Made by a program: the position numbers and the translations under genes. Below, piece by piece: positions 3,552-58,897 of a DNA stretch of 64,000 bases. The stretch spans positions 74,986-138,985 of IMG/VR virus record IMGVR_UViG_3300032312_000788. One strand, given 5' to 3'. Below the pieces are notes generated by a model. The model had not been told where the DNA came from. It saw only the letters and a program-made list of their open reading frames with translations, and ran no database searches. This stretch comes from a virus. Lineage: Duplodnaviria > Heunggongvirae > Uroviricota > Caudoviricetes. Each line of letters opens with the position of its first letter. Position 1 is the first letter of the stretch.

Positions 3552-3559
3552 ATACTAAT

Positions 3560-4414: not shown

Positions 4415-4415
4415 T

Positions 4416-5186: not shown

Positions 5187-5188
5187 TT

Positions 5189-8721: not shown

Positions 8722-8751
8722 GAATATATTTAACAAAGAATAAATACAATA

Positions 8752-8982
8752 GTGAGTAAAAACTTTAAAGTCTATGTCAGATACGACATAAAACGCCAAA
8801 GTGATGGATCGTATGCGATTCTTAAAAAGGATTTGGTGAAAAAGAAGGTTGACATCCATTCGACCTATGATACATATGAAGAGGCTAGAGCGACTTTAGA
8901 GGATCTGGAGAGCAAACCTTCCCAAGCCGATGCTCTGAAGATGATGAGTGATTTAAGATTGTCGATAGATTCAATAAAATAA
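8752..8982 (+). CDS. hypothetical small protein
   Basis: 76 aa; divergent from 8239..8721. Confidence 0.3.
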   Translation: MSKNFKVYVRYDIKRQSDGSYAILKKDLVKKKVDIHSTYDTYEEARATLEDLESKPSQADALKMMSDLRLSIDSIK

Positions 8983-14927: not shown

Positions 14928-15336
14928 AGTTTGGAATAAGAGAAATAAAAGATGGTTGTCTAAAGATGACCATAGTCTACATTGTTGGAGTCACTGGATG
15001 TTGGATATTTTCAGTGGAAAAATATATGATTTCGCTTTAGTTGGAGAGCATTACACACCAGATGTAGAGCCAGATTTTTATATGGATAAAACGACTCTTG
15101 TTTCGGAGAGTCCATATATCATCCAACAATGGACAGGAATGACTGATAAAGAGAGTGTAGATATATACGAAGGAGATATTGTAGAATACACATTAGCTAA
15201 TTCTAGATTCAAAGATAGGATTGAATGGCAAAACTATGGATGGGTTCTACAAGGTATAGATATAGACTCTGGATTTCCTCTTTGCGAAGCATATGACATG
15301 AAGATTGTTGGAAATATTTTCCAGAATGATCAATAA
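14905..15336 (+). CDS. YopX-family protein
   Basis: MRPKFRVWNK..DIYEGDIVEY pattern of YopX. Confidence 0.5.
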   Translation: MIMRPKFRVWNKRNKRWLSKDDHSLHCWSHWMLDIFSGKIYDFALVGEHYTPDVEPDFYMDKTTLVSESPYIIQQWTGMTDKESVDIYEGDIVEYTLANSRFKDRIEWQNYGWVLQGIDIDSGFPLCEAYDMKIVGNIFQNDQ

Positions 15337-15708
15337 AACACTAATGAATAATACGGACATGACAATTACAGATCTAGCATTACAAGAGCTACATGAAACT
15401 TGGGGGTATACTACCGAAGAGTTGAATGATATTCGAGATAAGATGGAAGAATTAGCCAATACTTGGTTTTGGGAAGGATACCAAGAAGCTTCAAATAAGG
15501 AAAAATCATTTACATCATATGGAAAATCAGAAGATTATGAATGAAGAGCAAACAGAAGCGGTATATGCCAATGATGAAACTTTATCAGCATTAAAAGAGA
15601 GATGGTTTAAATTAGCTAAGAACGAGGTTTTTGGAAAAACTAAAGAGATAACCAAAAAACTTGATGATCTAGAAAAAAGTATCAATAACCGAAAGAAAGA
15701 ATTAACAG

Positions 15709-16116
15709 ATGTTTGAAATTGAATTACCAAAGTATAAAGGAAGAATATTCAAACCTTATGATTGGTTTGGATGGTTAGCATCCTTAGTGGGAATTGGTCT
15801 AATGGCTATTATCGTTAGAGATGATAGCATTGAATGGTATCAAAAGTGTTGGGTTATGGGTGCTGTTGGATTCTGCACTCTCGAATATTTTTGGAGAGTT
15901 GCTCAAGGAAGGGTCTATAAATACATTTACTATGATACAATTATACACAATATGTATCAAATTAAAATAGGAGAAAATACTTATTACATTTGTGCGGAGA
16001 GTATTGAAGAGTTAGAGCTATATTTGGATGTTCATTATCCAAATGTATCAGAAAATTATGAAGTTATCTCAGAAAATGCTGTAGAGTCTTGGATTAAAAA
16101 GGAAAATTTTGTATGA
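15709..16116 (+). CDS. hypothetical membrane protein
   Basis: two hydrophobic segments. Confidence 0.35.
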   Translation: MFEIELPKYKGRIFKPYDWFGWLASLVGIGLMAIIVRDDSIEWYQKCWVMGAVGFCTLEYFWRVAQGRVYKYIYYDTIIHNMYQIKIGENTYYICAESIEELELYLDVHYPNVSENYEVISENAVESWIKKENFV

Positions 16117-16631
16117 AAGTTATATATGGTGATATGTTAGAGGGTGATTGGGATTTTGCTTGTCACATCGCAAATTGTTATACAACATTTGGTAGTGGAA
16201 TCGCTTATTTCATTAGACGAAAATTCCCAAAAGTTTATCAGGCTGATTTAGACTGTGACCTGAATGAAGTTGATAAGCTTGGAAATTATTCTTATGGTGA
16301 TATTGGAGATGGTCGTGGTATCTATAACATTTATGCTATGCGAGGATTGGGAAATGATGGATCTCACCTAGGTAGAAATTGTAGTTACGATGCCCTAGCT
16401 GATGCTCTCGATAAAATTTGTGAAGAGATTGAATACAACTGTTCTTTGTGGGAAGGTCGTATTAGGGTCGGAGTTCCGAGGCTTATGGGTTGTTGTAGAG
16501 CGGGAGGATCGTGGACCATTGTAGAATCCATTTTACAAACTATGGAAGAATTACATCCAAATATTGAGTTTGTGGTTTATGATTTTGAAGGTGAAGAAAA
16601 GGCTCAGAGCACTTTACCAATAAAACACTAA
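16113..16631 (+). CDS. macro-domain protein (ADP-ribose / Appr-1-p binding or hydrolysis)
   Basis: VIYGDMLEG..FACHIANC..FGSGIAYFI resembles macro GDIT..NAAN..GGGVAGAI signature. Confidence 0.55.
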   Translation: MKVIYGDMLEGDWDFACHIANCYTTFGSGIAYFIRRKFPKVYQADLDCDLNEVDKLGNYSYGDIGDGRGIYNIYAMRGLGNDGSHLGRNCSYDALADALDKICEEIEYNCSLWEGRIRVGVPRLMGCCRAGGSWTIVESILQTMEELHPNIEFVVYDFEGEEKAQSTLPIKH

Positions 16632-16645
16632 AGCATAATAACAGA
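16621..16645 (+). promoter_or_regulatory. conserved gene-start motif (promoter or initiation signal), example
   Basis: TAAAACACTAAAGCATAATAACAGA then ATG at 16646. Confidence 0.5.
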
Positions 16646-18037
16646 ATGAACATAAAAGTATCAGAAAACGCAGATCCAAATTACTTGGCTACTGTAATAA
16701 GATGTCCAGAAATTCGAGATCATCCGGGGGCTGACCGTTTATCGATTACAGAAATTTTTGGTAATACTGTGGTGTTGGGAAAAGGATCTTATGTGAAGGA
16801 TGACCTATGTGTTTACTTCCCTGTAGAATCTTGTCTATCGCCTAAGTTCTTGTCATGGGCTAATTTATACGATAAGGAAATTCTTAATGCTGATGGTAAG
16901 ACTAAGGGATTCTTCTCGCAGAAAGGTAATCGTGTAAAGGCTGTTAAATTACGTGGAATTCCATCTCAAGGATTTTTGTATAAGATCGAGGAATTGGCCA
17001 AATATTACAACATTTCTCCTAGAATTTTTGCCTTGGGTGAATCTTTTGATACTGTTGGTGAGGATTTACTTGTAACCAAATACATCAGACCAGAGGTTAA
17101 GTCAAACAATGAGAATAATACACCCAAGAATAAAATTCCTAAGTGGATTAATACAACTTTGGGTATTTTCCCTCGTCCTATCAGAAATACTATTTTCCCT
17201 GTAGTTAAGTGGTACTATGGTCTATCTAAGGACGATGGTATCAAGTCTCTTATTGTGGATGGACAATTCAAATTCCATGGCAAAACTGAACACTTGGGTA
17301 AGAACATTTGGTTGATCAATCCAGAGGATGAGATTACGATCACATCCAAGGCTCATGGAACCAGTGCAATCTTCGGTAATATTTTGAGTAAGCGTAAGCT
17401 TAGTTTAATTGAAAATATTAAACTGAAATTGGGTGTTGATGTAAAGACAACTGAATACACACTAGTTTATAGTAGTAGAAGTATTCTGAAGAATCGAAGA
17501 GATGGGAAATACACTGATGATGTGTGGGGTATTGAAGCATCTAAACTAGAGGGTATTATTCCAGAAGGTTATACTTTATTCGGAGAAATTGTTGGTCATA
17601 CACCCGGAGGTAAAACCATTCAAAAGAATTATGATTATGGAGTTCCTCTCACAGAATCGGATTTTTGGGTATATCGTATCACAGAAACTACTACTGATGG
17701 TGTAGTTAGGGAACTATCATTCCCAGAGATTTCGAAGTTGTGTGAAGAATTGTGCATCAAAACAGTCCCTCATTATTATACTGGAAAAGCCGAAGATCTA
17801 TTTCCCGATATCAAAGTGAATAAAGATTGGTCTACCAATTGGTTACACGCTTTGAAGGAGAAGTATCTCGATAAGAAATGTGAATTTTGTAAATCGGGTG
17901 TTGTAAATGAAGGAGTTGTTGTTAAGATCAATTCCAAGGATACAAAACCAGTCTTTAAATTCAAGTCTCCTTTATTTAACATAGCCGAGGGGAAACTTAG
18001 AGATAGTGAGTATGAAGATATAGAAGAATTAAATTGA
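16646..18037 (+). CDS. ATP-dependent RNA ligase, Rnl2/Rnl5 clade, with about 230-aa N-terminal extension
   Basis: motif I TSKAHGTSAIFGNI matches T4 Rnl2 KIHGTNFSLI (KxHGT); nucleotidyltransferase domain begins about residue 235. Confidence 0.6.
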   Translation: MNIKVSENADPNYLATVIRCPEIRDHPGADRLSITEIFGNTVVLGKGSYVKDDLCVYFPVESCLSPKFLSWANLYDKEILNADGKTKGFFSQKGNRVKAVKLRGIPSQGFLYKIEELAKYYNISPRIFALGESFDTVGEDLLVTKYIRPEVKSNNENNTPKNKIPKWINTTLGIFPRPIRNTIFPVVKWYYGLSKDDGIKSLIVDGQFKFHGKTEHLGKNIWLINPEDEITITSKAHGTSAIFGNILSKRKLSLIENIKLKLGVDVKTTEYTLVYSSRSILKNRRDGKYTDDVWGIEASKLEGIIPEGYTLFGEIVGHTPGGKTIQKNYDYGVPLTESDFWVYRITETTTDGVVRELSFPEISKLCEELCIKTVPHYYTGKAEDLFPDIKVNKDWSTNWLHALKEKYLDKKCEFCKSGVVNEGVVVKINSKDTKPVFKFKSPLFNIAEGKLRDSEYEDIEELN

Positions 18038-19098
18038 ATCAATCATCATATGAAAAAATGAGTCCAATTGGACTAAATATTCATATGGATAAAATACAAT
18101 ATATTAAAGATAATTATGGAATATTATCAAATTCTGAAATATCAGACTCACTAGGATTGAGTGTAAATCAAATTAGGTCGTTGGTATACAAACATATTCC
18201 TTTTGATGATAGATATAGGAGGGGTAAGTCTCCACATTCTAAACCAAAAAGAAAATTTAACGTAAACGATGAAAGTTTTTCTGAATATAACTTAAATTCT
18301 TGCTATTGGGCTGGATTAATGGCTGCTGATGGTCATATTACAAAAAAATGGGATTCGTTTTCGATTGGGTTGAAGGAGTCTGATAGATCACATATAGAGA
18401 AATTTAAGGTGTGGTTGAATTTCGATGGTCCAATATGCTATAACAAAAATAAATACTTATATAAAGGTGTAGAGCAAATGAAATATTCTTATTCTATAAA
18501 AGTCACTTCTAAAAAGATAGTGGAAGATTTAAATAATAATTTTGGTGTTATTAGAAAAAAGAGTTTGATAATCAAGCCTCCAACAAAGATAAAAGATGAT
18601 CAGCATATAGATTCTTTTATAAAAGGATATATTGATGGAGATGGTTCTTTATCTTTGGGTAAAGATAAAACATCGAGATTATCTATTTTGGGAACTTATG
18701 ACATGATTATTTGGATAAATGAAAGGTTTGAAAATATACTCGGTCGTCATTTACCGAAACCCATAAAAAATGGAAATGTGTGGAAGATTGATCTAGGTAA
18801 TAAAACATCTAGAAAACTTTTACAAACCTTTTTTAATATAAAAACACCAGAATTGGAAAGAAAATGGACTCCAGAACTGAGAGATATAGTCTTTAATTAT
18901 AAAAAGAGTAGAAATTTAGATAATTATAAAAATATTATAAGAATGCAAAGCGAAGGAATGAATCAAACAGAAATAAGCAAACATATTGGTGTTACCTCAG
19001 CAGCAATATGTTGGATTATGAAACAGGATTGTTTTAAAATCTTGAAGGAGAGTGCCGCTAGAGATAATGGAGAAGCTGATATGGAGGAAGAAAGTTAA
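18034..19098 (+). CDS. LAGLIDADG homing endonuclease with C-terminal HTH
   Basis: two LAGLIDADG motifs (YWAGLMAADGHI and KGYIDGDGSL); C-terminal HTH (TEISKHIGVTSAAICWIMK). Confidence 0.7.
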   Translation: MNQSSYEKMSPIGLNIHMDKIQYIKDNYGILSNSEISDSLGLSVNQIRSLVYKHIPFDDRYRRGKSPHSKPKRKFNVNDESFSEYNLNSCYWAGLMAADGHITKKWDSFSIGLKESDRSHIEKFKVWLNFDGPICYNKNKYLYKGVEQMKYSYSIKVTSKKIVEDLNNNFGVIRKKSLIIKPPTKIKDDQHIDSFIKGYIDGDGSLSLGKDKTSRLSILGTYDMIIWINERFENILGRHLPKPIKNGNVWKIDLGNKTSRKLLQTFFNIKTPELERKWTPELRDIVFNYKKSRNLDNYKNIIRMQSEGMNQTEISKHIGVTSAAICWIMKQDCFKILKESAARDNGEADMEEES

Positions 19099-19099
19099 T

Positions 19100-19261
19100 A
19101 TGAACGATAAATGGTATAATTCTGATTTTGCTGCATTGTTGGGTTTTGGTATTTTAGTGTTCTTATTATGTTTAGGTTTAGGGACGTGTACAAAAGTATC
19201 AGGTGGTCTACCACCGATCCAAGATAATAAAACACTAAATCATAATGTTGAACATGAATGA
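19100..19261 (+). CDS. small membrane protein
   Basis: start trimmed to internal Met; single TM segment. Confidence 0.3.
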   Translation: MNDKWYNSDFAALLGFGILVFLLCLGLGTCTKVSGGLPPIQDNKTLNHNVEHE

Positions 19262-20021
19262 ATCAATCAAAGAACATCCAGCCTTTGTGAATTGTGGGGG
19301 ACAATTGTTGGTTGAGCTTATCGGTGGATCGACTTTGTATGGACTGAATAATGAATCATCAGATATCGATTATCGTGGTTTGTTTATAGCTAGAGATAAA
19401 AAGTATATCAGTGGATTTGATACAATTGAGTCTATCGTTCAGGACAATGAAATCGATTCTACTTATTACGAACTCACTCGATATCTAAAGCTTTTGAGAA
19501 AATCTAATACTCAAGTATTAGAGATTCTATTCGCACCAGACGATGCCTTTACATATAAGTCTAATCTGTTTGACTATATTAGAGAAAACCGTTATGATCT
19601 AATCGAAACTAATATTTTGAAGTCTTCTCTGAAGGGTTATGTGTTCAGTGAGATTAGATTGGCTACGGGAGAAAGATCTGGTCAATTGGGTGGTAAACGA
19701 AAGGCTTCTGTCGTAAAGTATGGATACAGCCCGAAGAATTTTGTTCAAATTTTACGCTTATGTAAAGTGGGTCAAGTATTCTTCACCTCTGGAGATTACA
19801 TGGTTAAAGTGAAAGATTTCGATCCTAATTATCACGATTTTTTGATGGAAATCAAAACTAAACCAGAAAACTTCACAAAGGATGAATTATCCGGTTTGGT
19901 CGATGAAGAGTTTAAAAAACTAGAAAAAATCATGAATGAATCTACCATTAATTTCAAATTTGATGTTGATTTGGCTTCCGACATTGTTCTAGATGCGAGA
20001 TATGGCTACGAAGATTACTAA
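19245..20021 (+). CDS. Pol-beta-superfamily nucleotidyltransferase
   Basis: GGSTLYGLNNESSDIDYRG = hG[GS]x(9-13)DhD minimal NTase motif. Confidence 0.55.
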   Translation: MLNMNESIKEHPAFVNCGGQLLVELIGGSTLYGLNNESSDIDYRGLFIARDKKYISGFDTIESIVQDNEIDSTYYELTRYLKLLRKSNTQVLEILFAPDDAFTYKSNLFDYIRENRYDLIETNILKSSLKGYVFSEIRLATGERSGQLGGKRKASVVKYGYSPKNFVQILRLCKVGQVFFTSGDYMVKVKDFDPNYHDFLMEIKTKPENFTKDELSGLVDEEFKKLEKIMNESTINFKFDVDLASDIVLDARYGYEDY

Positions 20022-20211
20022 ATTTATAGATAATAAGGATAAGTCAGAAAATCTAACATATTATACAGACTACCCGACAGAACCTATAGGTGGAGGAAAT
20101 CCATACTATAGATGTAAATCGTGTGGTGTGAGTGATCCAGAAATAAATGGTAGATTAGATGGACATCGAAGCGATTGCGAATGGATCTTGAATAAGAAAA
20201 AGGAAGTATGA
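19993..20211 (+). CDS. small hypothetical (CxxC) protein
   Basis: 72 aa. Confidence 0.25.
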   Translation: MRDMATKITKFIDNKDKSENLTYYTDYPTEPIGGGNPYYRCKSCGVSDPEINGRLDGHRSDCEWILNKKKEV

Positions 20212-20624
20212 GCGAAAATACAAAACAAGTTATTATAATCAGGGCTGATCTCAATATGAGAAAGGGGAAAATTGCAGCACAAGCGAGTCATGGAAGTATG
20301 TCATTCTTAACTAAGAGTGGATCAACTGTCTTCTATGATCATCATTGGGCTTATTATCGAACTTCTAATTTCAATAAGGATTGGGTTTATGAACTTGCGC
20401 ACTGGCTTAATAATTCCTTCCGTAAAATTTGTGTATATGTAAACAGTCAAGAAGAACTTGAATCAGTTCATCGAAAAGCACTCGATACTGGGTTAATTTC
20501 TCATTTGATCATTGATAATGGAGCGACCGAATTTAACGGAGTTCCCACAATGACATGCTGTGCAATAGGACCACACTGGGACTATAAGTTTGAGGGTATA
20601 ACAAATCATCTACCATTATTATGA
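20208..20624 (+). CDS. peptidyl-tRNA hydrolase, PTH2 family
   Basis: VIIIRADLNMRKGKIAAQASHGS matches PTH2 LVVRxDLKMGKGKIAAQCSHAA. Confidence 0.75.
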   Translation: MSENTKQVIIIRADLNMRKGKIAAQASHGSMSFLTKSGSTVFYDHHWAYYRTSNFNKDWVYELAHWLNNSFRKICVYVNSQEELESVHRKALDTGLISHLIIDNGATEFNGVPTMTCCAIGPHWDYKFEGITNHLPLL

Positions 20625-20832
20625 GAAATAAATTCAACATGCAAGATTGGGTCAACGAAATAAATCGCTTAAATGAAGCGGATAGGATTCTTCGATTAAT
20701 TCTATCTTATTACGATATATACTCTGGACAATTTAAAAAGGTTCCAGACTACGATACAGATTTATGTAATCCGTATTCACTTAATAGTGCTATAAGAGGA
20801 TATATTAACTTTGACGATTCAGAATAAAAATT

Positions 20833-21099
20833 ATGAGGGATAGTATAAAGAAAATTATAGAATCCACAGGTTTAATGGTTTGTCCTGCTTGTGAAGGTGA
20901 AGGTGAATTGAATTATTTTTGTGGTCACGAATCTACCTCTGATTGTTATCATTGTTCTGGGAGAGGTGTTATCAGATCTTTAAATAAGGAGAAGCATAGT
21001 AAAGTTTGTATTATTTGTAATGGTCGAAGTGGTGGATGCGGTGGATGCAACTTCGACTCAGAGGGTTTTATTAGATGGGAAAGTTTTGAATTATTATGA
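20833..21099 (+). CDS. DnaJ-type cysteine-rich zinc-finger protein
   Basis: repeated CxxCxGxG units. Confidence 0.45.
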   Translation: MRDSIKKIIESTGLMVCPACEGEGELNYFCGHESTSDCYHCSGRGVIRSLNKEKHSKVCIICNGRSGGCGGCNFDSEGFIRWESFELL

Positions 21100-21180
21100 A
21101 ATATTCAAATCTTTTTTTATTTCTATTATTAATTCTTGAAAATTGTTCTTCTTTGGATTTTGGTTTGATTTTATCTGGAT

Positions 21181-21246
21181 TCTTTATTCTATATTCTTTA
21201 TTCTATATTCTATATTCTTTATTCTATATTCTTTATTCTATATTCT
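21181..21246. repeat. 14-bp tandem repeat (tctttattctatat) about 4.5 copies
   Basis: seen directly; generates spurious ORF 21096..21302. Confidence 0.8.
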
Positions 21247-21371
21247 TTTATCAAAACAGAATTACAATCTTTACAATAACTTCTAAGTCCATTTTTTCCT
21301 AATTTTTGTTTCGAAAAACATAAAAGAGGTTTAAATATTTTACAAACACTACAAACTTTACCTTCACTCAT
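21219..21371 (-). CDS. possible 50-aa zinc-ribbon mini-protein
   Basis: hand-translated minus-strand ORF MSEGKVCSVCKIFKPLLCFSKQKLGKNGLRSYCKDCNSV.. with two CxxC pairs; C-terminus derived from the tandem repeat; below the 60-aa ORF cut-off. Confidence 0.25.
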   Translation of the reverse strand: MSEGKVCSVCKIFKPLLCFSKQKLGKNGLRSYCKDCNSVLIKEYRIKNIE

Positions 21372-21400
21372 ACTATTATTTAATATATTCGGTTGAAGAT

Positions 21401-22090
21401 TTGAAGAAAAACTTTACATTTATGAAATTATATTTAGTGCGCCACGGTCAGTCATTAGGAAACGCGAATCCTTCGGTTTATTTTCAAAAACTTGATTGTG
21501 ACATAGAACTTACCGGACATGGACAAGCTCAAGCTGTAAAATCAGGTGACAGAATTATGGATTTAAACGATCATATCGTTCATAAAAACGATACAGATTA
21601 TCCTTATCCTAGTAAGAATCCACCTTATAGGTTCAATATGTGCTATAGTCCATATAAAAGGGCTAGACAAACAGCAGATATTATTCATGGACAAATCACC
21701 AATTTTGAAGGATATCATATCGAGAATTATCAAGAGATGCCTTTATTGATTGAAAGAAATTGGGGATCTTTGAGAGATATTGTAGAAGCCGGTAAAAAAA
21801 CCGAAGATCATTTTAATTTCTATTATAGACCAGATGGTGGTGAGAGTTTCTTGGATACATATCAGAGAGTAGTTCTATTCGATATGTGGCTCAAGAGTAA
21901 TACCAAGTATGAGAATAACATTGTAGTCGCTCATGGAGAATTCAATAAATTATATCTCATGTATCTTTTAGGTTGGTCTGTTAAAGAATTTCAAAAATAT
22001 AAGACTCCGAAAAACGGTGAAGTGTATTTGATCGAAGATGGTAAATTATCATCATTAACCCCTCTAACAGAAAAATATATTAAACACTAA
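21401..22090 (+). CDS. histidine phosphatase superfamily (PGAM-like)
   Basis: LYLVRHGQSLGN (RHG catalytic motif). Confidence 0.65.
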   Translation: MKKNFTFMKLYLVRHGQSLGNANPSVYFQKLDCDIELTGHGQAQAVKSGDRIMDLNDHIVHKNDTDYPYPSKNPPYRFNMCYSPYKRARQTADIIHGQITNFEGYHIENYQEMPLLIERNWGSLRDIVEAGKKTEDHFNFYYRPDGGESFLDTYQRVVLFDMWLKSNTKYENNIVVAHGEFNKLYLMYLLGWSVKEFQKYKTPKNGEVYLIEDGKLSSLTPLTEKYIKH

Positions 22091-23517: not shown

Positions 23518-24495
23518 GTGGTATACACATTACAAGATAGGAAAAGTTGGCCAGTTACTACAGGCGTATATAAATTAACATTTATTAATTCAACATCTAA
23601 TAAAGTTTATATAGGAAGTTCTGCGAGTATTCGGAAAGGTAGTTATTACGGAATTAGAACTAGATGGGGTAAACACGCTGATTTACTTAAATTGGGAATA
23701 CATTATTCGAAAAAATTACAGTATGCATATAATAAGTATGGCGGAGAAAATCTTACATTCGAAATCATAGATTCTTGCGATGGTGGGAATATAATAGAGA
23801 TGGAGACGTTTTATATTACCAAATACGATAGTTGTAATAATGGTTACAATTCTAGACCAACCGCAGAAAGTAATGTCGGTTATAAAGTCCCCAAGTCTAT
23901 CATAGAAAAGACAAATATAACAAAAAGAAAGAAAAGGGAACCTTACGAAATCGATGTCCTTAAGCTTTATAAAGAAACCAAAAATGCTTTAGGTGTTTCG
24001 AGGGAATTGGGATTGAGTCATAGTGTAGTTTTAAAAATTTTAAAAGACTACAATATAATTCCAAAAAATGGAGATTATAAGCGGAAAAATGTCTACGCAT
24101 ACATGTTGGATGGGTGTTTTGTGGGAATATGGAAAGATGCTAGGAGTTGTGCTGATGCACTAAATCTTAAAAGTATTTGTAGTATATCTCATGTTGCTAT
24201 GGGTAAGAATATTTCATATAAAGGATATTTCTTTTCATATGAAAAGAAAACCAAAAGAGAGATAGTTGATTATATAAAAACTAGAATATGTGAAAGCAGA
24301 CAAAAAATGAGCAATCCAGATAAGTTGATACTTCGCAACATTGGTCAATATGATATGTCAGGGAACTTGATAAAGGTTTGGGAAACCTCAACAGAAATTA
24401 AAAAATATTTTGATATGTTCAATTTTTCCCCAATATCAGCGGTTTTTGCTGGAACAAAAAAACATTACAAAGGTTTCTTTTGGAAAAAAGAATAA
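23518..24495 (+). CDS. GIY-YIG homing endonuclease
   Basis: GVYKLTFINSTSNKVYIGSSASIRKG..RWGKH; long C-terminal DNA-binding region. Confidence 0.7.
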   Translation: MVYTLQDRKSWPVTTGVYKLTFINSTSNKVYIGSSASIRKGSYYGIRTRWGKHADLLKLGIHYSKKLQYAYNKYGGENLTFEIIDSCDGGNIIEMETFYITKYDSCNNGYNSRPTAESNVGYKVPKSIIEKTNITKRKKREPYEIDVLKLYKETKNALGVSRELGLSHSVVLKILKDYNIIPKNGDYKRKNVYAYMLDGCFVGIWKDARSCADALNLKSICSISHVAMGKNISYKGYFFSYEKKTKREIVDYIKTRICESRQKMSNPDKLILRNIGQYDMSGNLIKVWETSTEIKKYFDMFNFSPISAVFAGTKKHYKGFFWKKE

Positions 24496-39240: not shown

Positions 39241-40239
39241 ATGAAATACGCAATTAACACAGAAGCAATTATTCTTTTTATTAACGGAAAGAATATCCGC
39301 GTTGAGAAGACTGATCAACGATATCCAAAAATTATCAAAGTCTTTCAACTACCAAAAGATGAGCAAGAAGCAGAAGTTGAAGCTATCCTTAATAAGGTCG
39401 TCAAGGCTGATAAGGTTATCGAAGAAACTGAAGGATTTGATATCCAAGGTGAAGAAATCTTCTATAAGGGCGAGAAGCTTCCTAAAGCTTTCTCAGATAA
39501 GGTTTTGTCTATCATCGCTGATGGACTCCCATTGGAACACTTTGAGAAGTTCTGGGCTAACCTAGAGCAAAATCCAAGTGCTCAGAGTGTGAAGGAATTG
39601 ACAGAATTCCTAGACTATAAGGAACTACCTCTCACAGAAGATGGTTGCTTCCTTGCCTATAAGGGTGTCAATTATAACTATTTTTCGTCACATGGAAATT
39701 TGAATACTAAGGTCATTCAGGGTGAAGTTAATTCTGATGGACAAATTTATAATGGAGTAGGATCTGTTATTGAAGTTCGTCGTCGTGATGTTGATGATAA
39801 TCGTGAAAAACATTGTTCATTCGGTCTTCATGCTGGATCATTGGACTACGCAAGGGGATTTGCGTCTCGTATGGTAGTTGTTAAGATCAACCCCGCTGAT
39901 GTTGTATCAGTTCCATCTGATTGTAATTGTCAAAAGGTCCGTGTGTGTAAATATGAAGTTATGTCAGACTTTGTAGAAGAAATTACAGCACCCGTTGTTG
40001 ATGAGGATGGAGAAAATACAATTGTTCCCGATCTTGTTAAGGAATTGGATGCCTTTGTAGCGAAGGTTGATAATTATCTCACTAAGAAGAGGGATGAAGG
40101 TTACACAGAAGTAACTATTCGACAAATCCAAAATATTTTCTCTCCTAATTGGGCGACCAAGGAACAAGTATTGAATGCTCTTCAACAACTTGGAGAATAT
40201 TGGACGACTACTGATGGACTTACAACTGTTCATCTGTGA
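39241..40239 (+). CDS. hypothetical protein
   Basis: 332 aa. Confidence 0.4.
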   Translation: MKYAINTEAIILFINGKNIRVEKTDQRYPKIIKVFQLPKDEQEAEVEAILNKVVKADKVIEETEGFDIQGEEIFYKGEKLPKAFSDKVLSIIADGLPLEHFEKFWANLEQNPSAQSVKELTEFLDYKELPLTEDGCFLAYKGVNYNYFSSHGNLNTKVIQGEVNSDGQIYNGVGSVIEVRRRDVDDNREKHCSFGLHAGSLDYARGFASRMVVVKINPADVVSVPSDCNCQKVRVCKYEVMSDFVEEITAPVVDEDGENTIVPDLVKELDAFVAKVDNYLTKKRDEGYTEVTIRQIQNIFSPNWATKEQVLNALQQLGEYWTTTDGLTTVHL

Positions 40240-40260
40240 ACACCAAGTTAAAATAACGAT

Positions 40261-40593
40261 ATGCAAGACATTATCAAAACATACATTCGCAACACTGAAA
40301 CCAACCAACCGAAAGGAATTGCTGTTGCTATCAAACATGAAGGAAAAATCAATTATGGTTTTTCTCTATGTAATACTCGACTCGATAAGTGGGATAAGAA
40401 GCATGGTGAAAAAATTGCGATTGCTCGCGCTCTAGCTCCAGCTTATAAGCTTCCTGCTGTAAAAGATCGTGAAGCATCTGTTCTTGAAGCTTTTGAGAAC
40501 CTTGAAAAGCGTTGTATCAAATACTTCAAAGATCTTCCATATGAAGATGTTGCCCTCAAGGGTCATCTTGGTTGGGAAGATGTTAATGTATAA
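40261..40593 (+). CDS. hypothetical protein
   Basis: 110 aa. Confidence 0.35.
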   Translation: MQDIIKTYIRNTETNQPKGIAVAIKHEGKINYGFSLCNTRLDKWDKKHGEKIAIARALAPAYKLPAVKDREASVLEAFENLEKRCIKYFKDLPYEDVALKGHLGWEDVNV

Positions 40594-48037: not shown

Positions 48038-48571
48038 ATGACAACGACAACTAACCCGCTAAGTGCTGAAGCTATTCGCAACAAAATCCTTTCTTGTAAG
48101 GGTCAATTTGTAAAAGCATCATGGAAAAGCAATCCTACTCCTGCTGCTTCTTTTAAAAAGGATGGAGTTATTCTTGAAAAACATACCGTAGCTGTTGTGC
48201 AAGCTGGTGTAAATTATGCTAATCTTTCTGCTGTAAAGGAAGGTATTGCATCTGGTGAACGTGGTGAAGTTGGTGAACTTCCATGGGGTTCGTGGTATGT
48301 GGACAAATTGACAAAGAAATCATGGTTTCCTCATGTCATTGAACATAAGGATAATCTTTATCTTCGTCTTTATCCATCACAAGCTAATAATCACATTCCT
48401 AAGTCAATCTACTATGTAAATGGTGAAGTTGTTGACAAGGCTAAGTTCGCTGAGTATCTTACTCCATCAGAAGCTAAGAAACTTCTTAGTCCTACTGATG
48501 AAGATCGTCCTCTATGCTTCACGATCAAGGCTGATAACATTCTTGATATTCCTGAAGACGTTGAAGGTTGA
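48038..48571 (+). CDS. hypothetical protein
   Basis: 177 aa. Confidence 0.4.
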   Translation: MTTTTNPLSAEAIRNKILSCKGQFVKASWKSNPTPAASFKKDGVILEKHTVAVVQAGVNYANLSAVKEGIASGERGEVGELPWGSWYVDKLTKKSWFPHVIEHKDNLYLRLYPSQANNHIPKSIYYVNGEVVDKAKFAEYLTPSEAKKLLSPTDEDRPLCFTIKADNILDIPEDVEG

Positions 48572-51036: not shown

Positions 51037-52155
51037 TGAAACACTAACATATAATCCTAATATGGCCGCTCAATATTGCACTATCACAGAATTGGAAATG
51101 GATGCTCTTCTAAAGCATGATAAAGGCTGGAGCAAAACCATTAAGGGTAATGAATATGTATATGCTTATCAAACTAAAAAGAATCCAAATATCAGTCTAT
51201 TTGTTTACTCTTCAATTTCTCTTAATGGTGTATCGAAGAAGTGCGGCACTGATGCTGTCAGGATATGTGCGGTTAATACAATAACAAACAAGGGTATCCT
51301 TAAAACAAAAAGAATCAATAGAGTTCCCGGTTGGGATGTTAGGCTCAAGGAAAGAGTTATGGATATGTTGAACCAAATCTTTTGATATGAACTTCAGAAC
51401 AATATCTGATTTCCCTCAATGGGTTCATGATTACAATCATTGGGGTTCACGTAAAGGTTGGCCCAAAGAATATCAACCCATTGCTGATGAGATCTATAAG
51501 AAAGCCGATGAAATAGCTGAGAAGATTAAGCAACCCAAATCTTGGATAAATATTTCACCATATACCCAAGGAGAAATCGATAATACAATGGGAGCTAGAT
51601 CAGATTTTTATGAGTCTTATCCAGTATTTGCCTGCTGTAAAGGTTATAGACCATCCGATTGGGATTGTGTATATGATTCCGAAATTGAATACGAATTTTC
51701 TAGGGGTGGATTGAGAGAAGCTAAGATCGGAAATTGGTATTTTTTTCTTGGATTTGATTTTGATTAATAATATGAAACGAGAAATAACTACAACAATTGA
51801 ATTGGATGGTGAGATTTATATCTTTCGAATTCAAAGAGAACCTAATGGAGAATTAACTATTACAACAACACCGGGAACTAATAAAAAGATTCAAGAAATC
51901 ATTGATACCCTTTTAGATAAAGCGTCTTATATTTTATGAAACCATCTACAGTAAAAGAAATCATTGAGAAGCTTCAACAACTTCCAGAAGATTTACCTTG
52001 CTTTGTTCGTCCTAAGTATTGGGGAACACTTAAATCTTATTGCGAGGCACCCATCCATATAAATGGTATAAGTGAAATGGAACCTATTAAAGATAGCGAA
52101 ATTCAAGAACATGTGACATTTTTGGTTTAATAAAACACTGCAACACAATACTGAC

Positions 52156-52518
52156 ATGAACCTGATCGATATGAAAATCATGACAATTAAGTTGCCAAAG
52201 ATTGAAGATATTGAATTTTCAATTGAATGTTTGGAAGAATATGAACATCCAAACAACTCATTTGCTTTGGATGATGAAACACAAGAAGAAGTTGTCAATT
52301 CCATCTTAAAAGATCTTAATAATGGAAACGAATGGGCTTGGTGTAGTATCCGTGTGAATGGATCATATAAAAATATCCTCAAGGCTAGTGATTATCTTGG
52401 ATGTTGCTCCTATGAATCGGAAGAAGATTTCATCAAAAATTCTGAATACTATGAAGATATGAAAGAAGTTATCTATCAGGATATTATCAAGCAACTCGAA
52501 TCACTTTCTATTGATTGA
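52156..52518 (+). CDS. hypothetical acidic protein
   Basis: 120 aa. Confidence 0.35.
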   Translation: MNLIDMKIMTIKLPKIEDIEFSIECLEEYEHPNNSFALDDETQEEVVNSILKDLNNGNEWAWCSIRVNGSYKNILKASDYLGCCSYESEEDFIKNSEYYEDMKEVIYQDIIKQLESLSID

Positions 52519-52717
52519 ACACTAAAGTAAACTACTTACATGAAGCAATACATAGTAACAATGAAATTTAATGTCTTTATCAATGCTGAAGATGAAGATG
52601 ATCTCAATGATAAGATCTTGGATATGGAATCCACATTCAAAGAAGAAGATGGTTCATTGTATGATACTGAATTGATTGGTATTGACACTGAAGAATATGT
52701 AGGATAAATAGATCAAT

Positions 52718-52836
52718 GGCCGTATGATGAAAAGGTAAACATCGCAGACTTTCTAATAGGGTATAAGTGAAATATATTATACCTTGTCGAAAATCTGCCG
52801 CCGAAAGGCTTCCCGGTTCGAGTCCGGGTGCGGCTA
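52718..52836 (+). ncRNA. tRNA-like element (119 nt)
   Basis: acceptor GGCCGTA/TGCGGCT (2 G-U); D-arm gatg-aaaaggtaaa-catc; T-arm cccgg-TTCGAGT-ccggg; a 10-bp hairpin (52757..52786) replaces the expected anticodon arm. Confidence 0.35.
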
Positions 52837-52848
52837 TCTCATACAATA

Positions 52849-53460
52849 ATGATTCATATCAATAGAAAAATCATTCCTGAGCAATTTTCGGTTGCTATCT
52901 CTGGTGGAGTTGATAGTTTAGCATGCTCTCATCTTCTTTTAACATTAGGTTATAATTTCAAAGCTATCCACTTCAATCATAATCAAAGAGAACAGAATCT
53001 AAAGATGGTTGATGTTTGTCGAAAGTTTTGTGATGACTACAAAATTCATTTGACAATTGGTGAATGTCGCGTAAAATACACTAAGAACATTGAAGATAAT
53101 TTGAGACAAGAGAGATTAAGTTTCTTCGATGAGATTGGTGAATCAATTATAGTCTGTCATCATCTAGGTGATTGTGTTGAACAGTATATTATGAATTGTC
53201 TAAAAGGTTGTCCAGAATATAAACCGATTCAACAAATTAGTGAGTTTGATAATTTTACTTTGCTGCGACCTTTTATTAAAAACAGTAAATCTAATTTAGA
53301 GGATTGGGTTGATAAAAGAGGATTATCTGGATATGTAGTAGTTGATGAAACCAATTCAGATAGTAAATATGAAAGAAACTGGATTAGAAATGAAATCCTT
53401 CCTAAAATCGAAGAACGAAGAGGGTTGGAGAAAGTCGTATTAAAGAAATTTTATTTGTAA
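52849..53460 (+). CDS. PP-loop ATPase, tRNA(Ile)-lysidine synthetase (TilS)-like
   Basis: FSVAISGGVDSLACSHLL (SGGxDS PP-loop); start trimmed to Met after the tRNA-like element; immediately upstream of tRNA(CAU). Confidence 0.6.
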   Translation: MIHINRKIIPEQFSVAISGGVDSLACSHLLLTLGYNFKAIHFNHNQREQNLKMVDVCRKFCDDYKIHLTIGECRVKYTKNIEDNLRQERLSFFDEIGESIIVCHHLGDCVEQYIMNCLKGCPEYKPIQQISEFDNFTLLRPFIKNSKSNLEDWVDKRGLSGYVVVDETNSDSKYERNWIRNEILPKIEERRGLEKVVLKKFYL

Positions 53461-53465
53461 TATAT

Positions 53466-53541
53466 CCTCCTATAACTCAACGGTCAGAGTAGCGGTTTCA
53501 TAAACCGTTAGTTACCAGTTCGAATCTGGTTAGGAGGACCA
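53466..53541 (+). tRNA. tRNA anticodon CAU (Met, or Ile2 if lysidinylated), CCA encoded
   Basis: hand-folded: acceptor CCTCCTA/TAGGAGG; D-arm ACTC-AACGGTCA-GAGT; anticodon arm GCGGT-TTCATAA-ACCGT; T-arm ACCAG-TTCGAAT-CTGGT; discriminator A; CCA. Confidence 0.85.
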
Positions 53542-53727
53542 TTTTATTGTGAGTGTTGTCATCAAAGGTTTAGTATTCCATGAATCCTTTGTCAATTCAT
53601 ACAAAGGTTTGGATACAATTCAAACTAGACGAAAACTGAAAAGATATTACACAAAGTCAGACCAAGATGCTATCATTAGATATCTGAAAGAGAATGGTCA
53701 CATAAAACACTAAAGTATAATAAGACT

Positions 53728-53958
53728 ATGTTGAAACAACAAAACATGACCCAACAAGAGATTGTTGAATGGATCTTATCCGGGAGAGATAATGATATTG
53801 ATAAGAGTGTATCTGAGGGATGTCGATATTCCCGAGAACAACTAGAAGCAGTTAATCGGTATATTGATTATATCGTTGGAGAACTGACAGATCCAGATTT
53901 AGCATATAATACTGAAACTGGATTTTTTGATTATGTTGGTCCTGAGTTGCCAGCATAA
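53728..53958 (+). CDS. hypothetical protein
   Basis: 76 aa. Confidence 0.3.
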   Translation: MLKQQNMTQQEIVEWILSGRDNDIDKSVSEGCRYSREQLEAVNRYIDYIVGELTDPDLAYNTETGFFDYVGPELPA

Positions 53959-53975
53959 ATAGTAATAGATTTAAT

Positions 53976-54050
53976 GGGAGTGTATCGGAACGGAATTCTA
54001 CTCCGTAGTACCGTAATGGATCGATGCAGGTTCGAATCCTGTCTCTCTCA
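53976..54050 (+). ncRNA. tRNA-like element (75 nt), possibly degenerate tRNA
   Basis: T-arm gcagg-TTCGAAT-cctgt; acceptor gggagtg/ctctctc (6 of 7); stem-loop acgga-attctac-tccgt gives anticodon TCT (Arg) but leaves no room for a D-arm. Confidence 0.3.
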
Positions 54051-54222
54051 CATTTTAAACATCCATGTTATCTAATCAATAACTAGTAGGGGTTGATATT
54101 AATCCTATGATGAAGTCGGGTGATTCCGATAAAGCAATGTGGGTAAATCCTCGTGATAATGATAGCGTTATCTGATGAGTCATGGAGCTAATAAGCATTG
54201 AAGTGATTCAACGAATTTCGAT

Positions 54223-54531
54223 TTGGTCAGACCATTCCTTTCCTATCCTATCCTATATACTATGAATCAAAAACTATACGCATTCTGGTCTTATGATCAA
54301 TTCCCATATTGCTTATGGGGTGAAGTTGAGAAGTTTAACGGTGATCTTGTTTATATCAAATCTTATATGGGTTGGTTTAAACCCTTTAAGATTGTGGAGG
54401 GAGAAGTTGGAGAGAAGATGATTAAATCCTTGATGAATATCGAATATGATAAAACTGTAGAACTTAAGGTATTGAATTCAAAATACGATAATCAATTGAA
54501 AGCTATTCTGCCTGAAATCTTTAAACACTAA
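54223..54531 (+). CDS. hypothetical protein
   Basis: 102 aa. Confidence 0.35.
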   Translation: MVRPFLSYPILYTMNQKLYAFWSYDQFPYCLWGEVEKFNGDLVYIKSYMGWFKPFKIVEGEVGEKMIKSLMNIEYDKTVELKVLNSKYDNQLKAILPEIFKH

Positions 54532-56960: not shown

Positions 56961-57083
56961 TTGAGTGTGGCGAAATTGGTAAACGCACTGGAGAAGAAGT
57001 AATAGGATAAGCGTAAAATAGCACTGTCCCGCATAAAAGCGTCTAACCCGGCATTATTATAGGTTCGAGCCCTATCACTCGAT
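56961..57083 (+). ncRNA. tRNA-like element (123 nt) with type-II-like D-arm
   Basis: acceptor TTGAGTG/CACTCGA (7 bp); D-arm GCG-AAATTGGTAAA-CGC (Leu/Ser-like); T-arm ATAGG-TTCGAGC-CCTAT; about 70 nt between D and T arms with no canonical anticodon arm. Confidence 0.35.
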
Positions 57084-57352: not shown

Positions 57353-58897
57353 ATGGAATTTAGTAAATATCAACAAGACGTTTTCGATTGGGTTATCAAT
57401 CCACAAAAGTTTCACGAATCCGCAAGGAATCTTATTGTGAAAGCTGTGGCTGGATCTGGTAAGAGTACAACTGCTCTCCAATCCGCAGTTTATATGAAAG
57501 GAGATATCATCTTTTTTTCTTTCAATAAGAAAATTCAAGCTCATCTTGAAAAGAAACTTGCATCCATGGGTTTGCCTAATGCTCGTGCTGCTACTTTTCA
57601 TAGTGAAGGCATGAAGAATCTTATCAAGTCGAAGGGTAAGGTTAAACTAGAAAACTCTAAGATTTATTATATTGTTGAGAAGTATTGTCAAACTCAAGAG
57701 TTGAATGCTGCTCGTCCTTTCATTCAAAAGCTTGTAGGGTTTGCTAAAGAGTATGCCTTTGGAGTTAAAGGTCAACGTTCTATCGATGATACTCAAGCAT
57801 GGATGGAAATCATTCAAACTCAAGATATTAGTTTGGATGCTGATTGTGACTTCGATGAAGTTATCGAAATTGCCAAGCAAGTTCTGAAGGAATCTAATCG
57901 TGACTTCCGTAATATCGATTTTGCGGATATGATTTATCTCCCTCTCATCTATGATATCGAGTGCATCAAATATGATTGGATCATTGTCGATGAGGCTCAA
58001 GATACTAATGTATCTCGCAAGCTTTTCATTGCTAAGGTTCTCAAGCCTAATGGTCGTTTGATCGCTATCGGTGATGAAAATCAGGCAATCTATGGATTCA
58101 CCGGAGCGGAAAACGATTCAATGAATCTTATCAAGGATATGTTTCAATGCTACGAACTTCCCCTTTCTGTCTGCTATCGTTGCGGAAAGAAGATTGTTGC
58201 AGAAGCTCAAAAGTATCAACCTCATATCGAAGCTTATGAGGGAAATGAGGATGGTGAAATCCTCTCCATCAAATATGATGATTTCCTTGATCAAGTTGAA
58301 ACGATGAAACTTTCCTCTAAGGATGGTATTATCTGCCGAAACAATGCACCTAATGTTGCACTTGCCTTTGCTCTTATTCGTAAAGGTATCGGATGCCGCA
58401 TCGAAGGTCGTGATATTGGACAAAATCTTATCACTCTTTGTAATAAGTGGAAGCGTGTCTCTGATCTTAATGAGTTCATCGAAAAGCTTAATGCTTTCTT
58501 TGAGAAAGAATTTGAGAAAGCTTCTAAAGCTAAGATGCAAATGCTTGAAGATAAACTTCAAACCATGATCATTCTTATTGAGCGTTGTCAATCTCTTGGT
58601 AAGAATGATGTTCAATCTCTCAAGAATCTCATCGAGGCGATGTTCACTGATGATGGTGATCCTAAGAACGCTGATCTCGTGACTCTCTCTTCTATTCATA
58701 AGTCTAAGGGTCTGGAGTTTGACAATACTTATCTTATCGGGAATGCACAACTCGTTCCAAGTAAGTATGCTGTGACTGAGGCGCAACAAATTCAGGAGCA
58801 AAATCTCCTATATGTATCAGTAACCCGCGCTCTTAAAAAGATGGTGAATGTTACCGATATTCCTACCCGTGGTGGTCGTAAGATCGAAGAAGAATAA
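57353..58897 (+). CDS. UvrD/PcrA-like SF1 helicase
   Basis: Walker A AVAGSGKSTTAL; motif II IIVDEAQDTN; motif VI-like SIHKSKGLEFDNTYLIG. Confidence 0.7.
   Translation: MEFSKYQQDVFDWVINPQKFHESARNLIVKAVAGSGKSTTALQSAVYMKGDIIFFSFNKKIQAHLEKKLASMGLPNARAATFHSEGMKNLIKSKGKVKLENSKIYYIVEKYCQTQELNAARPFIQKLVGFAKEYAFGVKGQRSIDDTQAWMEIIQTQDISLDADCDFDEVIEIAKQVLKESNRDFRNIDFADMIYLPLIYDIECIKYDWIIVDEAQDTNVSRKLFIAKVLKPNGRLIAIGDENQAIYGFTGAENDSMNLIKDMFQCYELPLSVCYRCGKKIVAEAQKYQPHIEAYEGNEDGEILSIKYDDFLDQVETMKLSSKDGIICRNNAPNVALAFALIRKGIGCRIEGRDIGQNLITLCNKWKRVSDLNEFIEKLNAFFEKEFEKASKAKMQMLEDKLQTMIILIERCQSLGKNDVQSLKNLIEAMFTDDGDPKNADLVTLSSIHKSKGLEFDNTYLIGNAQLVPSKYAVTEAQQIQEQNLLYVSVTRALKKMVNVTDIPTRGGRKIEEE

Follow-up and report, generated by a model that had tools for sequence, protein, structure and literature searches.

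A catalytic-domain-only TilS adjoining a tRNA(CAU) in an AT-rich tailed-virus genome: a predicted phage enzyme-substrate pair for AUA decoding

Here, we describe a short virus-encoded gene of the tRNA(Ile)-lysidine synthetase (TilS) type and the tRNA genes that surround it. The locus is found in a stretch of 64,000 nucleotides (nt), referred to as the window, i.e., positions 74,986 to 138,985 of the IMG/VR record IMGVR_UViG_3300032312_000788, which belongs to the Caudoviricetes. The genome is AT-rich and jumbo-phage-like. The window has a G+C content of 34.5%, transcription is nearly all on the + strand, and its genes encode, e.g., a tape-measure protein, rIIA, rIIB, an RNA ligase, a helicase and several homing endonucleases. 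On the + strand three units lie close together, i.e., a tRNA-Leu(UAA) homologue with an interrupted anticodon loop (52718-52836), a gene for a TilS N-terminal (catalytic PP-loop) domain protein (52849-53460) and an elongator-type tRNA(CAU) with an encoded CCA end (53466-53541). An earlier interpretation, made from the letters of the DNA without database searches (the sequence-only reading), had proposed that the enzyme and the tRNA(CAU) form an enzyme-substrate pair; the data summarized below support this proposal and lead us to consider it probable.

The TilS open reading frame (ORF) extends from the ATG at 52849 to the TAA at 53458-53460 and encodes 203 amino acids (aa), one fewer than the 204 given in the sequence-only reading. 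The ATG at 52849 was chosen as the start, instead of the GTG at 52828, because an N-terminal "MI" is conserved in 33 homologues. The protein carries the sequence ISGGVDS (S18-G-G-V-D-S23), and the SGGVDS PP-loop and TilS-like N-terminal layout noted earlier are borne out by profile and structure comparisons. Residues 13-182 match PF01171 (Pfam) with E = 1e-34, the check that had been suggested, and the NCBIfam model TIGR02432 (lysidine_TilS_N) gives 123 bits against a curated cutoff of 93.6. The PDB sequence matches are three TilS structures only (1ni5, 1wy5 and 3a2k), in their N-domains only, and the motifs SGGxDS, HHLxDxxE, RP, DxxN and RNxxR are conserved in the alignments to these structures and show little or no variation among 33 family members. 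Residues N43, E82, R86, R89, D108, E111, P141, D166, N169, R176 and R180 are invariant in 33 family members. An AlphaFold2 model built from 33 homologues (predicted local distance difference test, pLDDT, 94.5) has E. coli TilS (1ni5) as its best PDB fold match in Foldseek, with a template-modeling (TM) score of 0.83, followed by the Aquifex and Geobacillus TilS and then by TtuA-type structures. Other PP-loop families, among them the QueC and PAPS reductase alternatives considered in the sequence-only reading, fare poorly; QueC, ThiI, MnmA and PAPS reductase match weakly and in the PP-loop region only (Pfam), where QueC alone is barely above its threshold (26.8 vs 22 bits). Judged from sequence and predicted fold, the ORF is a TilS-type catalytic domain, not QueC or PAPS reductase.

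The protein ends (residue 203) where the N-domain ends, and the full-length TilS equivalog model NF007942 gives 83 bits against a cutoff of 606, i.e., the earlier description of this protein as a catalytic domain only holds. It lacks both C-terminal domains, CTD1 and CTD2, known from cellular TilS, where CTD1 is found in all described enzymes and CTD2 additionally in those of type I (PMC11947777). The TilS C-domain Pfam model finds no match in the eight window ORFs flanking TilS, nor in an endonuclease ORF at the same locus in the sister contig L001 (see below), and PHROGs has no family for the short TilS. The short TilS belongs to a large family that is located predominantly on viral contigs, more than 555 of which encode relatives. 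When the 150 best representatives at 50% identity were taken from a set of 1.8 billion proteins, about 140 had a length of 190-260 aa; with so many similarly short relatives, the short TilS is no isolated truncation. It represents a third, minimal TilS architecture.

The tRNA(CAU) gene begins 5 nt past the TilS stop codon, as had been noticed, and forms a full cloverleaf that is recognized by both ARAGORN and Rfam (tRNA model, 67.2 bits vs a gathering score of 29). Its C1-G72 is paired, and U3-A70, C4-G69, C5-G68, C11-G24, U12-A23 and G27.U43 are found at the positions relevant to identity. The anticodon stem is composed of G.U, C-G, G-C, G-C and U-A pairs, without a run of three G-C pairs at 29-31/39-41, the loop is UUCAUAA with A37 and A38, and the 3' end is A73-CCA. 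Initiator tRNAs are marked by A11-U24 and G12-C23, Met and fMet tRNAs usually have C3-G70, and tRNA-Ile(CAU) often has C4-G69 and C5-G68 (PMC1635315). By these rules of Silva et al., A11-U24, G12-C23 and C3-G70 are all absent, while C4-G69 and C5-G68 are present; of the Met-type identity elements that the sequence-only reading had named as an argument against the pair, those covered by these rules are not seen. The T-stem ACCAG/CUGGU is the same as that of T4 tRNA-Ile(CAU), a gene that ARAGORN labels Met as well. Sequence identity is 50/74 to T4 tRNA-Ile and 49/76, 45/76 and 33/76 to E. coli tRNA-Ile2, tRNA-Met and tRNA-fMet, respectively; overall identity is a poor discriminator. A BLAST search with the tRNA(CAU) gave no match in E. 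coli genomes and weak, uninformative matches in phages. Taken by these identity rules, the tRNA is an elongator, Ile2-like and no initiator, and an elongator tRNA-Met is unlikely.

The association of the short TilS with tRNA(CAU) is found also outside the window. A set of 81 related viral loci was fetched, and clustering of their TilS-like genes at 70% identity gave 37 clusters. The nearest tRNA is CAU in 15 of the 25 clusters that have any tRNA within 3 kb, and in 10 of these 15 it lies at most 100 nt away on the same strand, upstream or downstream. Of the tRNAs in these loci at distances above 1 kb from the TilS-like gene, 15% are CAU; against this background the linkage has p = 3e-7, and if three CAU tRNAs interrupted by group I introns are counted, the numbers become 18/28 and p = 4e-9. 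A within-locus permutation test of "nearest tRNA is CAU" gave p = 0.26, but this test is without power because CAU is often the sole tRNA in the locus. The CAU tRNAs located more than 1.9 kb from TilS in L050 and L062 resemble initiators.

The interrupted CAU tRNAs, in the clusters L036, L037/L038 and L046, (tRNA genes at L036 ~3668-3953, L037 ~4304-4568 and L046 3671-3935) are skipped by plain ARAGORN because each holds a group I intron of about 190-200 nt. These introns are homologous and are located at position 33/34 in L036 and at 36/37 in L037 and L046; only that of L046 reaches the Rfam gathering score (RF00028, 59 bits). The tRNA-Ile(CAU) of Azoarcus is likewise interrupted by a group I intron. 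The TilS-linked CAU tRNAs that were tabulated comprise 24 distinct sequences; in five of the loci (L005, L006, L007, L021 and L025) the tRNA(CAU) is 91-94 nt long and class-II-like, with a long variable arm and a Leu-like D-arm. Several of these share a 17-nt anticodon arm with the class I tRNA(CAU) of the window; the arm, GCGGU-UUCAUAA-ACCGU, is common to five tRNAs whose bodies otherwise differ, apart from two that are near-identical, and class-II-like tRNAs are among the five.

A second, independent type of data is codon usage. In TilS-like genes from dereplicated loci, AUA accounts for 31 of 562 Ile codons (5.5%), compared with 403 of 1539 (26%) in neighboring ORFs of at least 150 aa. At the 25 loci with at least 20 Ile codons in neighboring ORFs, 18 AUA codons were observed in TilS-like genes and 94.9 were expected (z = -10.4), and the AUA share is lower in TilS than in its neighbors at 31 of 33 loci (80-aa ORF set). 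UUA (28% in TilS-like genes vs 29% in neighbors) and AGA (48% vs 38%) are not avoided. The window TilS gene displays the same pattern, with AUA at 1/19 Ile codons and UUA and AGA at 7/19 and 8/12, which fits translation after the phage tRNAs become available and before lysidine is formed. Avoidance of AUA only is what would be expected if TilS is translated before capacity to decode AUA exists.

The window as a whole uses AUA for 21% of its Ile codons (16.9 per 1000). The use is uneven among genes (chi-square 224.5, 58 degrees of freedom, p = 2e-21), and AUA, UUA and AGA covary across genes (Spearman rho 0.43-0.50). The helicase gene has none of these codons (AUA 0/48, UUA 0/42, AGA 0/18), nor has rIIB (0/22, 0/24 and 0/11), at a G+C content at third codon positions (GC3) of only 0.30-0.34; the numbers for rIIA are 1/46, 4/42 and 10/28. 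Several other genes are also nearly or fully free of the three codons, and GC3 of the codon-poor set is 0.23-0.35. The tape-measure and tail-region genes located at 1.3-8.2 kb, on the other hand, have AUA for 39-62% of Ile, UUA for 22-55% of Leu and, one small ORF excepted, AGA for 60-83% of Arg codons. Examples of the two classes are 39241-40593, 48038-48571 and 57353-58897 (poor) and 1314-8242 (rich); their assignment as "early" and "late", respectively, is by analogy with the T4 gene classes. AUA, UUA and AGA are exactly the codons of the three tRNA or tRNA-like genes near TilS, i.e., CAU (LAU after the proposed modification), Leu(UAA) and Arg(UCU).

Based on these findings, the explanation that we favor, and regard as probable, is that a predicted phage minimal TilS acts on the adjacent tRNA-Ile2 precursor, which would enable translation of AUA-rich phage genes. 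The three units, separated by spacers of 12 nt (between the tRNA-Leu homologue and the ATG) and 5 nt (between the stop codon and the tRNA), would be co-transcribed, and RNase P together with 3'-end processing of the flanking tRNAs would free the TilS mRNA. The enzyme is proposed to adenylate C2 of C34 in the phage tRNA(CAU) at the expense of ATP, whereafter lysine would displace AMP to yield lysidine. The modified tRNA would then be charged by the host isoleucyl-tRNA synthetase and would read AUA, not AUG. Without CTD1 and CTD2 the enzyme would have to recognize its substrate by the anticodon stem-loop alone. The purpose would be decoding of AUA, beside that of UUA and AGA by the neighboring tRNAs, in the codon-rich (tail, presumably late) genes, where host decoding capacity for these codons may be limiting or may be destroyed during infection. 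The low AUA content of TilS itself would follow from its translation before AUA decoding capacity exists.

A number of observations weigh against this explanation. Deletion of CTD2 alone from the Burkholderia (type I) enzyme cuts activity sharply (PMC11947777); because CTD1 is universal in the described cellular TilS and loss of CTD2 is costly, an enzyme composed of the N-domain only may be weak, may need a partner or may differ in specificity. The assignment as Ile2 rather than Met is rule-based, U3-A70 is not among the listed Ile-specific states (G3, A3, C70, T70), and the margin in identity between E. coli tRNA-Ile2 and tRNA-Met is slim. Conservation of the linked tRNA's anticodon arm is uneven in the family, the closest relative (L003) differs, and the sequence of the arm does not strictly covary with the TilS clade. 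The 203-aa homologue of Pseudomonas phage PA5oct has no annotated tRNA within 3 kb, and about one-third of the family clusters, including one of 18 loci, are without a tRNA within this distance. Furthermore, AUA avoidance is common to other genes of the window, i.e., it is not unique to TilS within this genome. The AUA contrast is one among phage genes, and no close cultured relative that would point to a host was found; the identity of the window helicase to proteins of cultured phages does not exceed 38.6%.

The tRNA-like element upstream of TilS (52718-52836), which the sequence-only reading had noticed, is real but had not been recognized for what it is, i.e., a class II tRNA-Leu(UAA) homologue with a long variable arm, A73 and no encoded CCA. 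Default ARAGORN and Rfam make no call at these positions. With introns allowed, ARAGORN identifies tRNA-Leu(taa) with a 38-nt insert. In the minimum free energy (MFE) fold the element forms a cloverleaf whose variable arm is long and whose anticodon arm is extended, at -46.5 kcal/mol (z = -5.6, none of 200 shuffled sequences as good). Alignment to the intact tRNA-Leu(UAA) of L007, L008, L013, L021 and L025 reveals one clean 38-nt insertion (52752-52789) between U34 (52751) and A35 (52790), which is also the site of the group I intron in cyanobacterial and plastid tRNA-Leu. The insert forms a hairpin with an 11-base-pair (bp) stem that holds two G.U pairs, so that the structure is specific to the RNA sense strand. 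If spliced, the junction would read GCAGACUU joined directly to AAAAUCUGC. This tRNA-Leu homologue is not a TilS substrate.

A pattern scan of viral and metagenomic contigs for the same anticodon stem with a gap of 25-55 nt identified seven further distinct insert-bearing tRNA-Leu(UAA) genes, i.e., eight with the window copy. Their inserts are 33 nt (L085), 32 nt (L086 and L205), 34 nt (L087), 38 nt (L090) and 51 nt (L199 and L211) long, and those of L199 and L211 hold a T-arm-like hairpin. The same anticodon-arm pattern gave 76 matches in 185,579 species genomes, none of them a tRNA. Another 17 metagenome matches with a 38-nt gap were discarded as no tRNA genes; 16 of these are copies of one unrelated repeat. 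In L090 the interrupted tRNA-Leu adjoins a tRNA(CAU), at c[8055,8162], that itself has an insert of 35 nt at 34/35. Although their sequences differ, all inserts form a hairpin of 9-11 bp with G.U pairs. Those of L086, L087 and L205 have common ends, UUUCAAG...CUUCU(G/U), and inner 7-bp stems that are wholly different and still complementary. The interrupted gene is the sole Leu(UAA) gene in the L086 and L087 arrays. The G.U-containing hairpins, the complementarity of the variable stems and the sole Leu(UAA) genes in these two arrays argue for an RNA-level element that would be functionally tolerated. In all eight independent genes the cloverleaf outside the insert is intact.

Several known types of insert were considered. 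A group I intron or its remnant is rejected; the insert is only 38 nt, a group I core (P3-P8) needs about 200 nt or more, there is no match to RF00028 at E <= 1 in 52000-54500, and the U/...G/ boundaries (slashes marking the junctions) are found in the window copy, not in L085, L090 and L205. A bulge-helix-bulge intron, in which two 3-nt bulges on either side of a 4-bp helix hold the splice sites, does not apply as there are no bulges, and in the MFE folds both junctions fall within an unbroken helix whose register varies between examples; no EndA-like gene was seen among the scanned window proteins, which are part of the proteome only. An RNase III substrate is rejected as well, because the cut sites are staggered in the opposite sense and not in the same way in all examples, and a DNA-level palindrome is unlikely because the G.U pairs make the hairpins strand-specific. 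With these classes set aside, a real mini-intron is a plausible identity of the insert, although somewhat short of an even chance. An endonuclease-immunity scar in a dispensable gene is a more tentative suggestion, and the same reserve applies to the idea that the interrupted tRNA-Leu is a non-decoding, tRNA-like RNA.

Homing endonuclease genes directly adjoin the interrupted tRNA in L001 and L087. Locus L001 is a 202-kb IMG/VR contig that is a sister of the window, with 85-95% nucleotide identity over the aligning stretches. It encodes a 219-aa homing endonuclease (2283-2942, - strand; phrog_559/phrog_3339) between the tRNA-Leu homologue and TilS. The gene sits exactly at the 3' end of the tRNA-Leu homologue and is flanked by a 17-nt repeat of this tRNA end (window 52817-52833). 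The window is without this endonuclease, yet there are 0 mismatches to L001 over the aligned 52712-53750, with flanks that are 88-91% identical. This island of identity fits a co-conversion tract around an endonuclease insertion. An explanation in terms of purifying selection is rejected, because TilS is also without synonymous changes and the insertion site lies inside the island; given the co-conversion pattern, the identity is silent on selection on the insert. In L090 a remnant of the same endonuclease gene adjoins the interrupted tRNAs. In L205 a gene at 7892-8923 (+ strand) encodes a 343-aa protein with an N-terminal HNH motif and an RNA ligase domain (phrog_24030, E = 2e-140); it is located 1.7 kb from the insert-bearing tRNA-Leu(UAA), and a phosphoesterase gene adjoins the L085 copy.

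Two additional tRNA-like genes are found downstream of the tRNA(CAU). The first, at 53976-54050 (+ strand), is a non-canonical tRNA-Arg(UCU)-like gene (Rfam tRNA 33 bits vs 29) that is without a normal D-arm; the sequence UA-UCGGA leads straight into the anticodon arm, and a D-loop-like segment of 19 nt (AGUACCGUAAUGGAUCGAU) precedes the T-arm. The cultured phages Atu_ph04 (Agrobacterium), DC31 (Limnohabitans) and SOVA965 (Stenotrophomonas) have unannotated homologues of 83-88% identity (homologue loci L093 ~1497-1575, L094 ~1500-1580 and L095 ~1497-1573), in which changes in the acceptor and anticodon stems are compensatory. The window copy, unlike these homologues, has a U6.U67 mismatch and no encoded CCA. 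The second, a fourth tRNA-like gene at 56961-57083 (+ strand), has an acceptor stem, a Leu-like D-arm (GCG-AAAUUGGUAAA-CGC), a T-arm and a long, irregular middle part; with introns allowed, ARAGORN reads its anticodon as CUA, with a weak stem and an insert of 49 nt. This insert and that of the tRNA-Leu share TAATAGG(N0-2)ATAAG...AAATA (local alignment p ~0.005 by shuffling), a combination found nowhere else in the window.

The features of the two preceding paragraphs bring into focus another interpretation, i.e., that the three packed units are a recently moved mobile cassette in which at least the two non-canonical tRNA-like genes would be passengers in decay or scars left by homing endonucleases; the cluster would then not function in decoding. 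The identity island between the window and L001, the L001 endonuclease with its 17-nt repeat and the defects of the Arg-like gene (the mismatch and the lacking CCA) are consistent with such a history. However, the intact cloverleaf in all eight insert-bearing tRNA-Leu genes, the sole Leu(UAA) genes of L086 and L087, the heavy use of UUA and AGA in the window tail genes and the canonical, intact TilS and tRNA(CAU) are difficult to reconcile with decay, and we consider this interpretation rather unlikely. Equally speculative is an extended scheme, an AT-rich-codon module of tRNAs that need phage-specific maturation, in which a TilS that reads only the anticodon arm, the 38-nt hairpin mini-intron and a late-translation timer would act together. 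In this scheme the 32-51-nt inserts would form a recurrent phage-restricted class that is neither group I nor bulge-helix-bulge, and would be removed by protein-dependent cutting and rejoining, possibly with the RNA ligase and repair genes of the phage. As DNA, the insert would shield the tRNA gene from the adjacent homing endonuclease in the manner of collaborative homing, and tRNA maturation, together with the early/late split in AUA, UUA and AGA, would time translation of late genes.

An RNA-repair-type set of four genes, plus a LAGLIDADG homing endonuclease, is located at 13651-22090 in the window. It is composed of a metallophosphoesterase (13651-14376), an RNA ligase (16646-18037), an RlaP-family nucleotidyltransferase (19245-20021) and a histidine phosphatase (21401-22090); the LAGLIDADG gene (18034-19098) is found directly after that of the RNA ligase, and another homing endonuclease gene at 23518-24495. 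A scan for promoters and terminators gave no more than expected by chance, and the TAG stop is rare (3 of 111 ORFs). No viral contigs encoding the ORF at the window end were found, so the tRNA inventory given here is that of the window only.

The repair set bears on the selective reason for the pair. It could be that the enzyme and its tRNA mainly replace capacity that is lost in infection, through degradation of host tRNAs or defense tRNases that cut the anticodon arm, rather than compensating for a codon mismatch. The new tRNA(CAU) would then need lysidine fast, with a host TilS that is too slow or too scarce; the biochemistry is the same and only the selective reason differs. Apart from the repair genes, a bacterial Schlafen defense nuclease that cleaves tRNA-Met(CAU) and tRNA-Ile(CAU), among others (PMC13056530), and the about 1000-fold variation in catalytic efficiency of bacterial TilS (PMC11947777) are consistent with this possibility. 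On the other hand, complete avoidance of AUA, UUA and AGA at low GC3 is the signature of codon compensation and points to a limit imposed by the host from the start of infection. Capacity loss and codon compensation are not mutually exclusive, but as the main reason the former appears improbable. Least likely is that the tRNA(CAU) is an ordinary elongator tRNA-Met and the PP-loop protein acts on host tRNA-Ile2 or on something else (another tRNA position, another amine donor, a non-tRNA nucleic acid), as might be suggested by the ARAGORN label Met (assigned by anticodon), the small E. coli Ile2/Met margin, the uncharacterized state of N-domain-only proteins, the lower-ranked fold matches to TtuA, NcsA and the QueC-like Cap9, which have other chemistries, and the PA5oct enzyme without an annotated tRNA within 3 kb; the CAU-specific linkage and the AUA-specific self-avoidance are hard to explain on this basis, a TtcA/TtuA-type Fe-S Cys cluster is absent, the family-invariant residues are those of TilS, and AUG is no rare codon that would call for an extra tRNA-Met.

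Returning to the favored explanation, i.e., a minimal phage TilS that would modify the adjoining tRNA-Ile2, its significance lies first in enzyme specificity. TilS uses domains far from the active site to separate tRNA-Ile2 from the near-identical tRNA-Met, and how type II TilS manages with fewer domains has been called an open question (PMC11947777). A large natural family without accessory domains offers ready enzyme-tRNA pairs with which the specificity of the catalytic domain and the anticodon arm could be gauged, and a minimal TilS may be a compact tool for AUA/AUG reassignment. The AUA-poor TilS together with the three-codon split is unusually direct sequence-level evidence that phage tRNAs and a modifying enzyme may gate translation of a subset of genes. 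Furthermore, the interrupted tRNA-Leu and the rewired tRNA-Arg indicate that some phage tRNA genes escape standard tRNA finders.

In comparison with the bacterial TilS of type I (E. coli, Geobacillus) and type II (Aquifex), the phage protein has the PP-loop N-domain, the TilS-specific residues and the fold in common, and the ATP- and lysine-dependent modification of C34 in tRNA(CAU) that these enzymes catalyze is presumed also for the phage protein. It differs in that CTD1, which contacts the anticodon stem as well as the elbow, and CTD2, which reads out the acceptor stem, are both absent, and in that the gene is viral and adjoins that of the presumed substrate.

The tRNA cluster of phage T4 has the same three anticodons, Leu(UAA), Ile(CAU) and Arg(UCU), and a homing endonuclease gene (segB) among the tRNA genes, as is also the case here in L001. 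It also encodes rnaC and rnaD, which are stable, tRNA-like RNAs of unknown function; with introns allowed, ARAGORN reads part of rnaC (species 1; T4 locus L096, 2409-2547, - strand) as a tRNA-Leu(UAA)-like structure. In contrast to the locus described here, the T4 tRNA-Leu and tRNA-Arg are canonical and no TilS is annotated in the cluster; T4 is not known to encode a TilS and relies on the host enzyme. The insert has its closest precedent in Lak megaphages, namely in tRNA introns termed "enigmatic", which are likewise located in the anticodon loop and are without an Rfam intron class or known mechanism (PMC6784885). One Lak insert, in tRNA-Tyr, is about 93 nt, with others in tRNAs for Phe, Gly and Thr (PMC6784885), whereas the inserts here are simple hairpins of 32-51 nt that interrupt tRNA-Leu(UAA), and one CAU tRNA, at position 34/35.

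Viral TilS and a lysidine-bearing phage tRNA-Ile2 are already known. Lysidine at position 34 (k2C34) has been found on a vibriophage tRNA(CAU), where it is presumably installed by the host, and giant viruses also carry TilS (PMC13191261). The chlorovirus TilS has been proposed to overcome a host bias against AUA; it is, as here, virus-encoded and accompanied by viral tRNA clusters, in a virus that is AT-rich relative to its host (PMC7589089). In that case, however, the host is a eukaryotic alga, tRNA-Met was proposed to be converted, and neither gene-level linkage nor AUA self-avoidance was reported. Close counterparts are found in AT-rich jumbo phages with tRNA sets. The Pseudomonas phages MIJ3 and PA5oct encode a putative TilS of the same short architecture (in PA5oct 203 aa and about 30% identical), as do the uncultured huge phages LR756502 and LR745206. 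The function of the MIJ3/PA5oct protein was reported as unknown, and that paper does not report a domain truncation, tRNA linkage or codon signature (PMC6892783). Relative to the literature found, the new elements are a viral family composed of the N-terminal domain only, its coupling to tRNA(CAU), the avoidance of AUA in its own genes and the partition of phage genes by the three codons AUA, UUA and AGA.

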